Shown one piece after another: positions 37,940 through 38,800 of a stretch of 64,000 nucleotides of DNA; positions within the stretch are counted from its first letter, which is position 1; every line of letters starts with the position of its first letter. This stretch comes from Eledone cirrhosa (taxonomy: Eukaryota). The notes under the pieces were generated by a model. The model was not told the DNA's origin. It ran no database searches and saw nothing but the letters and a program-made list of their open reading frames with translations. The DNA lies in contig OZ024740.1 in the NCBI GenBank assembly GCA_964016885.1, positions 53,878,001-53,942,000 of the forward strand. Reading direction: 5' to 3'. Made by a program: the position numbers and the translations under genes.

Positions 37940-38007
37940 CTATCATCAGTGATCTACTAGCCATCATAGGTATCTCTTCGCATTAAAGACCAGATACCTC
38001 AGGCTAA
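37940..38007 (-). ncRNA. Non-circularly permuted hammerhead motif with kink-turn (copy C; GAAA mutated to GAGA)
   Basis: Minus strand ttagc-CTGA-ggta-TC-tggtct-ttaatgcgaa-GAGA-tacc-tatGATG-gctag-t-agatca-CTGATGA. Confidence 0.68.
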
Positions 38008-38741
38008 CGCGAACAATAACTAAAATAAGTTATTGGGATACAAAGAATTGGGTGGAGAAAGAGAGACAGGTAAACAAACATGAATGGTGAGGCAACGTAA
38101 AGAGACGAAAAAATTAGAAAATCAAGTCAATGATTCATTTCAACATAAGAATTTGCGAATATTGACGAGAAGACGAAACACACATCTTAACCGTGCGAAA
38201 GTAAGCGAGGAAATAATTTCGCACGGTGTGGGACGATGGAGGAAGTGAGAGAGAGGGTGAATGTGTGAGGAAGAGGCTAGCCGAGAGAGGGTGACTAGCA
38301 GAGGGGGTGAATGAAAGTAAGAGGGAGAAGGAGAGAGAGAAGGGGAAGAGAGAAAGAGGTTAGCAGTAAGGGTAGAGAAAAAGACGGGTCACAGCAAAGG
38401 GGAAAGCATATAGGAATGAAAAATGGCGTGCTGGGTTGTTGCAAATGTGATATACACATTAAAATGAAGAATTATAAATAGGACTTTCCATCTCTCTCAC
38501 TTCCTCCATCGTCCCATACAGTGCATAATTCTTTCCTCGCTTACTTTCGCATAGTTGGGATGTGTCTCTCGTCTTCTCATCAATATTCGCTTCGCAAGTT
38601 CTTATGTTCAAATGAATCATTGACTTGATTTTCTCATTTTACCTCTCTTTACGTTGCCTCACCATTTATGTTTGTTTACCTGTCTCTCTTTCTCCAACCA
38701 ATTCTTTTTATCCCAATAACCTATTTCAGTGATTGTTCGCG

Positions 38742-38800
38742 CTAGCCCGAGGTATCTGGTCTTTAATGCGAAGAAATAACTATGATCGCTGATGATGGAT
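38742..38800 (+). ncRNA. Non-circularly permuted hammerhead motif (copy D; 11-nt deletion)
   Basis: ggta-TC-tggtct-ttaatgcgaa-GAAA-taac-tatgatcg-CTGATGA-tgg. Confidence 0.55.

Follow-up and report, generated by a model that had tools for sequence, protein, structure and literature searches.

The locus analysed here raises the question of whether hammerhead-like words that stand in reversed order in both arms of a fold-back insertion belong to one self-cutting RNA and, if they do, what kind of element carries it. The window is a stretch of 64,000 nt of the Eledone cirrhosa genome (contig OZ024740.1, positions 53,878,001 to 53,942,000), and all positions below are counted within it. Our best overall explanation, to which we give a probability of roughly 0.7, is a damaged fold-back insertion whose short non-coding repeat likely had Naiad-type Penelope-like elements (PLEs) as helpers and carries a predicted reversed, split hammerhead at its 3′ end.

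The N2 locus is a fold-back insertion of a non-coding repeat

The repeat, N2, forms a 974-bp fold-back insertion in (TA)n and, as an earlier note on this DNA had proposed, damaged hammerhead-type blocks lie in both of its arms (37902-38257 and 38488-38833; 86% identity over 361 columns). Alignment of the arms defined a left unit of body and 3′ end (37902-38407, minus strand) that ends in (TA)n, and the longest ATG open reading frame of the locus is 56 amino acids. Next to it stands a partial upstream tandem copy (38408-38492, minus strand), pLTR-like and made of the final 43 nt of the unit and a tail of ∼42 nt; this copy begins within CUGAUGA, and the remaining core is absent. The stretch 38450-38492 matches 37902-37944 at 86%, the repeat spacing is 548 nt on the minus strand with the full unit running down to 37902, and 38408-38492 matches 38794-38875 at 81%. 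At 38408, 126 reads of run X4 enter the microsatellite. An inverted, 5′-truncated copy (38488-38875, plus strand) overlaps the tandem copy by 5 nt at the inversion point (38488-38492) and carries a tail (38834-38875) at that end only, and both ends of the insertion run into (TA)n.

The partial tandem, the inverted 5′-truncated copy, the one-sided tail of 30-40 bp and the microsatellite target are those of a Penelope-like insertion. The legend to Fig. 2 of PMC8557442 gives a partial tandem, an adjoining inverted copy and a one-sided 30-40 bp tail as the Penelope-like layout, and passages of the same paper describe fold-backs as common to all EN+ clades of PLEs and list (TA)n among the targets of cephalopod Naiads. 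In the anole element PAc, the tail is tied to two internal start sites of reverse transcription in the relevant passage of PMC11167929. Because canonical type I hammerhead families in the window make similar fold-backs (22719-23052; 33729-34057 with 37280-37608), the fold-back as such is ordinary.

The body upstream of the N2 motif had been described as homologous to 9580-9940. We recovered this likeness as a match to 9595-10006 (66% over 425 columns, E 3.5e-23), and the view that N2 and the family at that place, N3, are related non-coding elements is supported.

The rest of the window is AT-rich and microsatellite-dense, with broken RT and GIY-YIG frames. Pfam RVT_1 or GIY-YIG matches were obtained in 4 of 8 frames tested, the recognisable fragments run RT then GIY-YIG, and no Naiad ORF was identified in the window. 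The 329-bp inverted repeats at 33729-34057 and 37280-37608 (96%) each contain a minimal type I hammerhead (33788, minus strand; 37549, plus strand) and flank broken RT and GIY-YIG frames at 34179-36061 (minus strand), a canonical Penelope-like insertion adjoining N2. A canonical type I family with a long stem II is represented by one fold-back pair (22719-23052, 88%) and three copies (472-643, 55376-55492 and 56204-56319). Near-perfect palindromes of ∼100 bp at 39677-39775 and 15519-15627 are probably small fold-back insertions.

Both N2 motif copies are damaged and the family consensus is intact

The blocks of a permuted hammerhead, in the order site, GAAA, CUGAUGA, were found in both arms, in agreement with the earlier note. 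The whole ribozyme-like motif of the left copy spans 37937-38040 on the minus strand, as judged by descriptor, folding and pair alignment. Block S (37987-37999) holds the stem III 5′ strand, an AUC triplet and the stem I 5′ strand; block G (37968-37982) holds the stem II 3′ strand, GAAA (here GAGA) and the stem III 3′ strand; and the split block C (37943-37955) holds the stem I 3′ strand and CUGAUGA, all on the minus strand. The AUC had been placed next to stem I, and indeed it ends at 37993, with stem I formed by 37992-37987 and 37955-37950; by analogy with known hammerheads, the cut is predicted 3′ of 37993. The lesions claimed for the two copies were likewise confirmed. In the left copy, GAGA replaces GAAA at 37976-37973 and CUGAUGA stands at 37949-37943. 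In the right copy (38708-38802, plus strand), which has the 11-nt deletion, the site ends at 38756, GAAA lies at 38773-38776 and CUGAUGA at 38789-38795; there we found two further lesions, mismatches in stem III at 38779 and in stem I at 38788. The strands of stem II and of a closing helix, Pc, are intact in the right copy, and the 3′ strand of a joining helix, J, is lost (both helices are described below). A change of A14 in the hammerhead core is strongly damaging. Since the left copy carries an A14 change and the right copy has lost a J strand, both N2 copies at this locus are probably dead.

Four public read runs were mapped on 37904-38500, two as contigs of one sample (2093 and 2135) and two as raw reads (3080 and 2961). 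At 37974 the letter of GAAA is present in 533 of 540 reads (X4) and 544 of 551 reads (X5), so that GAGA is private to the left copy and, as had been supposed, the consensus behind the damaged copies is intact. Among the 40 variants listed of 192, in data whose RAD depth is biased, the pairing letter at 37941 (Pc) occurs in 293 of 312 and 342 of 359 reads, the Watson-Crick letter at 38007 (J) in 259 of 285, and a change at 37952 that turns a stem I G-U into G-C in ∼36-42% of raw reads (152 of 362 and 141 of 393). Family-majority letters thus taken from the reads restore GAAA, Pc and J. With them CUGAnGA, GAAA, NUH and the A15.1-U16.1 pair are present in the N2 family majority as well as in N1 (a third family of the window) and N3, GAGA standing in the left N2 copy.

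The depth of run X4 was ∼470-545 over the core (37964-38003) and 137-231 at 38044-38143, and 133-185 reads per run diverge directly outside 37932-37999; given the bias of RAD depth, the higher core depth and the diverging reads are suggestive only. Among the reads, many family copies are longer by ∼5 nt at 37932. Upstream of 37999, 133-136 reads per run part from the rest as another subfamily, whose X strand resembles that of N3 and whose J 5′ strand is different.

The motif contains four helices beyond the recognised core

In all three window families, the strands follow one another as Pc 5′, hairpin P0, X, J 5′, III 5′, NUH, I 5′, a 4-nt link, X′, GAAA, III 3′, J 3′, I 3′, CUGAnGA and Pc 3′. 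The structure given in the earlier note was therefore incomplete, four helices having been missed. Stems I and III are of 6 bp each and adjoin the core in N2. In the five copies that match our descriptor (see below), the sequence that follows CUGAnGA can make just 0-1 bp with the bases 5′ of GAAA; these bases pair with strand X, upstream of the cleavage block, over 6 bp in N2, 4-5 bp in N3 and 5 bp in N1. We infer that X/X′ is stem II, strand X (38008-38013, minus strand) being its 5′ strand from 10.1 and pairing with 37982-37977. The letters of X differ in N1 and in the Naiad records, yet stay complementary.

Helix J (5′ strand 38002-38007, minus strand; 6 bp with 37962-37957) has one strand between X and stem III and the other between stem III and stem I. 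Between N2 and N3 it shows 2 double changes, with every cell paired, and we take it as the probable equivalent of the stem I-II helix of hammerhead types SGC and CSG, where it would clamp the far ends of stems I and II. J and stem III are separated in each of the three window families by an asymmetric bulge, a possible hinge. Hairpin P0 (38014-38035, minus strand; 8 bp with a 6-nt loop) stands directly 5′ of X, and N1 has a hairpin of 9 bp and different sequence in the same place. Pc (5′ strand 38036-38040, minus strand) pairs with 37941-37937, directly after CUGAUGA-U, and shows 2 double changes between N2 and N3; the left N2 copy is without it because of a single change at 37941. Pc was first recognised in the Acropora Naiad record and then confirmed in the window. 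Together, Pc and P0 appear to form an extra branch that would hold A9 beside 10.1.

Minimum-energy folding recovered P0, J and stem III only, the crossing stems being beyond the method. Rfam hammerhead models were likewise silent: a scan of 37904-38880 gave 3 matches at E up to 10, none of them to a hammerhead, and a scan of the whole window gave microsatellite-driven miRNA matches among the 150 listed of 561. Two candidate helices were dropped. One, a conserved mini-hairpin behind CUGAUGA, is missing from Naiad records, and Pc accounts for its conserved GGA; the other would have paired the III-to-I linker with the tail and was given up for J.

Descriptor matches and covariation point to one fold

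A descriptor made after seeing the copies (site, GAAA and CUGAnGA in this order, and a minimum of 4 bp in each of stems I and III) gave 5 matches in the window, compared with a mean of 0.05 (maximum 1) in 100 block-wise dinucleotide shuffles. The matches are the left N2 copy, two N3 copies (10000 and 10966) and two N1 copies (15173 and 14420); the right N2 copy fails because of its 11-nt deletion. J, X and P0 are found in 4 of the 5, three of which also have Pc, and X was reached by no shuffle. When the 60 nt upstream of stem III were shuffled, all four extra helices appeared in 0-2 of 300 trials per copy. These shuffle figures overstate significance, since descriptor and structure were built post hoc on the same copies.

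Every level of the descriptor is present in N3 copies a (9910-10011) and b (10874-10979), both on the plus strand and with the same architecture as N2, and in N1 copy a (15161-15276, minus strand), which has other stem sequences and a GUC site. N1 copy b (14408-14523, minus strand), 753 nt downstream in tandem, has intact core stems and damaged J and Pc. The N1 direct copies as a whole (14388-14592 and 15141-15352) are 86% identical at the same 753-nt distance and hold the cleanest split-type motif. The tail of the N3 copy at 10000 shares 14 nt, from CUGAUGA on, with a type I hammerhead at 8365, either by chance or as a trace of exchange between PLE families.

Across the four N2 and N3 copies, 91.5% of 141 cells pair, compared with 30-48% in slid controls. 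This covariation test is weak, consisting of 4 related rows; N1, which a six-copy alignment had placed out of register, was left out of the count. Double-sided changes occur in 5 of 37 pairs of these copies (2 in Pc, 2 in J and 1 in stem I), and within the four rows stem II, stem III and P0 show none; support for these three comes from N1 and the Naiad records. A pattern scan of viral contigs gave 0 matches. A scan of metagenome contigs gave 30, which we took as chance; stems I and III were above 2 bp in 0 of the 30, so the motif words alone do not bring the stems.

The motif is related to permuted hammerhead types SGC and CSG

The reversed block order, as the earlier note had missed, is a published class. 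Passages of Eckert et al. 2023 (PMC10085705) describe blocks C, G and S in six orders, with CUGAnGA assumed to be inseparable from its stem I and II strands; type SGC was represented there by 583 metatranscriptome sequences and type CSG by 2 unique soil DNA sequences, and CSG was cleaved at the predicted site at 0.004-0.03 per min. The portions of its supplement that we searched gave no match for octopus or Mollusca. N2 shares with SGC and CSG the reversed cyclic order S, G, C, stems I-III, a helix (J) that ties stems I and II together at their outer sides, short links (a linker of 4 nt in N2) and, in its consensus, an intact core. In the CSG alignment of that paper, the joining helix is 8 bp (6 bp in N2), the link to stem III 2 nt (2 nt in N2) and the stem I-to-II link 5 nt (4 nt in N2). 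Where SGC and CSG have the 5′ strand of stem II within 1-2 nt after CUGAnGA, N2 has its partner upstream. Block C is thus unbroken in SGC and CSG, whereas the window motif is opened between A9 and 10.1, outside the six named orders; also unlike SGC and CSG, both of its J-III links are covalent, it has Pc and P0 at the opening, and it resides in an animal retroelement. We infer that the motif is a type CSG hammerhead with its ends joined and its chain opened between A9 and 10.1, where Pc and P0 were placed. A single unpaired base at this junction is common in PLE hammerheads according to PMC4209133, which makes it a plausible place for a branch; passages of PMC3088659 list core insertions at other places. 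By analogy, the window motif is predicted to work like SGC and CSG.

Hammerhead types I-III are nested three-way junctions that Rfam models match, and N2, with its crossing stems, is not of this kind. The canonical pLTR hammerheads of PLEs, as described in passages of Cervera and de la Pena 2014 (PMC4209133), are minimal type I hammerheads whose stems are nested and whose stem III is short and palindromic; the window motif differs from them in its crossing stems and in a long stem III plus J. The animal non-LTR retrozymes of a recent preprint (bioRxiv 10.64898/2026.07.22.740005), which in the sections available uses type I models only, are tandem units with a type I hammerhead each, unlike N2 with its partial upstream copy that lacks the core. 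Common to N2, PLE pLTRs and retrozymes, as far as these texts describe them, are the placement of a hammerhead in a PLE-derived repeat, at its 3′ end or in its pLTR, pairs on opposite strands at distances of 100-700 bp, and short non-autonomous tandem units. Within the literature searched, most subscription journals lying outside it, we found no paper that ties permuted hammerheads to retrotransposons, Naiads or octopus, and none in whose text 'A9 and G10.1' occurs.

The same kind of motif is found in Naiad consensus records

According to passages of Craig et al. 2021 (PMC8557442), Naiads are without a canonical hammerhead, and 10 of their records are flagged HHR_core and 8 HHR_half_core. An autonomous Penelope-like partner with an N2-like motif had been anticipated, and the same kind of motif is indeed seen by eye in the Naiad consensus records of that study (n=54). 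The displayed stretches were parsed by eye and not computed; the places viewed were 45 of 62 for CTGATGA, 23 of 23 for CTGACGA, 15 of 43 for CTGAAGA and 15 of 25 for CTGAGGA, with matches across line ends missed.

The reversed block order was read by eye in 20 of the 54 records, of which 10 have the split form, 7 an intact type CSG and 3 a partial motif. The split form, with X, J, III and I, is that of Obim, Ovul, Amil, Aacu, Anas, Plae, Movir-2, EuTe, Bfor and one record in the Clytia block, and by eye its hosts include octopus, coral, box jelly, comb jelly, acanthocephalan and clam shrimp. Its X measures 4-6 bp and differs in sequence from lineage to lineage, and Pc and P0 are visible in every split record except Bfor, whose Pc lies outside the viewed stretch and whose stem I is 2 bp. 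Type CSG is intact in Parc, Nbra-1, -2 and -3, Hpol and Hcon (named by file order) and in one further record. Among the partial records, Esco combines stems I and III and helix J with an X that is mismatched at one place, and the other two have the order site, GAAA, CUGAnGA with no assignment for stem II. Five matches had no assignable layout by eye, and seven Naiads (Movir-1, CGi, Mcor, Omin, Ppac, Asuum and Chem-1) showed no motif by eye in ∼490 nt of 3′ end. Five of the eight HHR_half_core Naiads were parsed by eye, Parc, Nbra-3 and Hpol as CSG, Ovul as split and Esco as partial. In the viewed part of the 3′ ends of Naiad_CGi and Naiad-1_Movir (PMC8557442, file S5), we saw GC-rich, structured-looking stretches and no hammerhead core; these may be another ribozyme class.

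Because X, J and P0 were defined before any Naiad sequence was seen, the 10 split records serve as an out-of-sample check, and by eye they have the same helices with unrelated letters. Across phyla, the catalytic words CUGAnGA, GAAA and NUH with the A15.1-U16.1 pair stay constant, although no stem keeps its sequence. In the same supplement, the rows for Hydra and Penelope are of type I.

N2 and Naiads, as the latter are described in passages of PMC8557442, share a partial tandem, an inverted 5′-truncated copy, a one-sided 30-40 bp tail and the (TA)n target. The 3′ ends of Naiad_Obim and Naiad_Ovul have the same motif layout as N2 with different letters, and the likeness of N2 to the octopus Naiad lies in the layout and, loosely, around P0 only (by eye). 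Unlike the coding Naiads, whose ORF has an N-terminal GIY-YIG, a CxC motif and an RT, N2 is about 550 nt long and non-coding, so it can be Naiad-related only as a non-autonomous derivative.

Discussion

We consider the fold as proposed to be highly probable, and we think it likely, by analogy with the cleaved CSG sequences, that the N2 family consensus would cleave. The reversed hammerhead would most likely be the fold of intact N2-family RNA, with a predicted cut on the 3′ side of the AUC that ends at 37993; this point lies ∼90 nt before the end of the unit, and the rate is probably low, as it is for CSG. Naiads are the probable helpers of N2. More tentatively, the partial tandem, inverted copy and one-sided tail may have arisen when Naiad proteins mobilised N2 from internal start sites. 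Equally tentatively, the cut might trim read-through RNA of tandem copies to unit length, much as release of unit-length RNA from tandems is proposed for canonical PLEs in a passage of PMC4209133. That cleavage matters for transposition is somewhat doubtful; by analogy, a required role is opposed by PAc, for which passages of PMC11167929 report that hammerhead cleavage was not required for insertion in vitro and that no RNA reads ended at the site. A rough span estimate (2.8 Å per pair and 6 Å per single-strand step) gave 42 Å needed and 38 Å available in N2, 36 and 44 Å in N3 copy b, and 45 and 59 Å in N1 copy a; in N2 the modelled monomer fold would be marginal.

This span bears on an alternative in which the helices are the same and are active only as two copies, with J and III forming a rod whose base arms (X, CUGAUGA and the 3′ strand of stem I) engage the loop of the other copy, and in which only tandem transcripts would be cut. 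The two J-III links are short, the span strain would vanish if two copies docked, N1 stands in tandem, and the Eulimnadia Naiad has by eye a nearly continuous 15-bp J+III rod; in addition, passages of PMC4209133 call Penelope hammerheads dimer-dependent, and Eckert et al. flag the same short-link puzzle in the text seen (PMC10085705). We nevertheless regard this alternative as unlikely, because single-motif SGC and CSG transcripts of 77-81 nt cleaved and were fitted as in-cis reactions in that paper, whose consulted passages describe no dimer test, and each of the window families has the J-III bulge that may serve as a hinge. The form given in the earlier note, an ordinary type SGC order with a core closed by a stem II of one pair from the base after CUGAUGA, is very unlikely. 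Its 10.1-11.1 pair is T/A in N2 and A/T in N3, as had been stated, and in N3, whose strand X has a mismatch at 11.1, the base after CUGAUGA may provide the first pair. However, the letters are T/C in N1, with no pairing to 11.1, and the single pair fails by eye in the octopus, Acropora, Pomphorhynchus and Eulimnadia Naiads as well, where X pairs 5-6 bp; moreover, the bases after CUGAnGA are already used by Pc. That we are dealing with chance words or a decayed canonical type I hammerhead is scarcely credible. The 14 nt shared with the hammerhead at 8365 and a GGA-NNN-UCC mini-hairpin after the core in N1 and N2 would fit decay, but GAAA follows CUGAnGA in no copy, the descriptor found 5 matches where shuffles gave 0.05, and the read letters, shuffle counts and pair alignment largely refute this reading.

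The remaining alternatives concern function and mobility. The fold might be kept as a recognition or initiation signal for an element protein, with cleavage slow or irrelevant in the cell. In vitro insertion of PAc without hammerhead cleavage agrees with such a role (PMC11167929, in part), as do the slowness of permuted hammerheads described in passages of PMC10085705 and the continued amplification of several Naiads that have no motif at the viewed 3′ end; the retention of all catalytic words across phyla, while every stem changes, makes the signal role improbable. It is likewise improbable that a canonical RT-GIY-YIG Penelope-like family, and not a Naiad, mobilised N2. Canonical fragments and type I hammerheads do surround N2, and in passages of PMC8557442 the fold-back layout is common to all EN+ clades and cephalopod Naiads are described as long-inactive remnants. 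Against this, the reversed motif is seen in Naiad records while the Hydra and Penelope rows are type I, and the 14% divergence between the N2 arms fits an old insertion. We retain the reversed, split hammerhead of a probably Naiad-helped repeat as the preferred reading.

N2 taken alone would be just one more, damaged, subfamily. Judging from the sequences, its motif is likely the self-cutting RNA reported missing from Naiads, and this gives a testable answer to the puzzle of Naiads reported without a canonical hammerhead. It is fairly probable that many Naiads and their non-coding derivatives carry an active hammerhead that was missed as non-circularly permuted, with several openings of one reversed fold across animals: intact CSG in nematodes and a seventh layout, opened at A9/10.1, in cephalopods, cnidarians, a ctenophore, an acanthocephalan and a crustacean. 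The split layout breaks the assumption of Eckert et al. that the CUGAnGA block and stem II are inseparable, and covariation is added for type CSG, for which it was termed modest in the original paper (PMC10085705, in the passage seen). Standard hammerhead searches would miss all such motifs. Non-circular RNA permutations would thereby move from rare environmental sequences to animal genomes, and Naiads and their derivatives, if this reading is true, would give non-circularly permuted ribozymes their first genomic home in eukaryotes, at high copy number.
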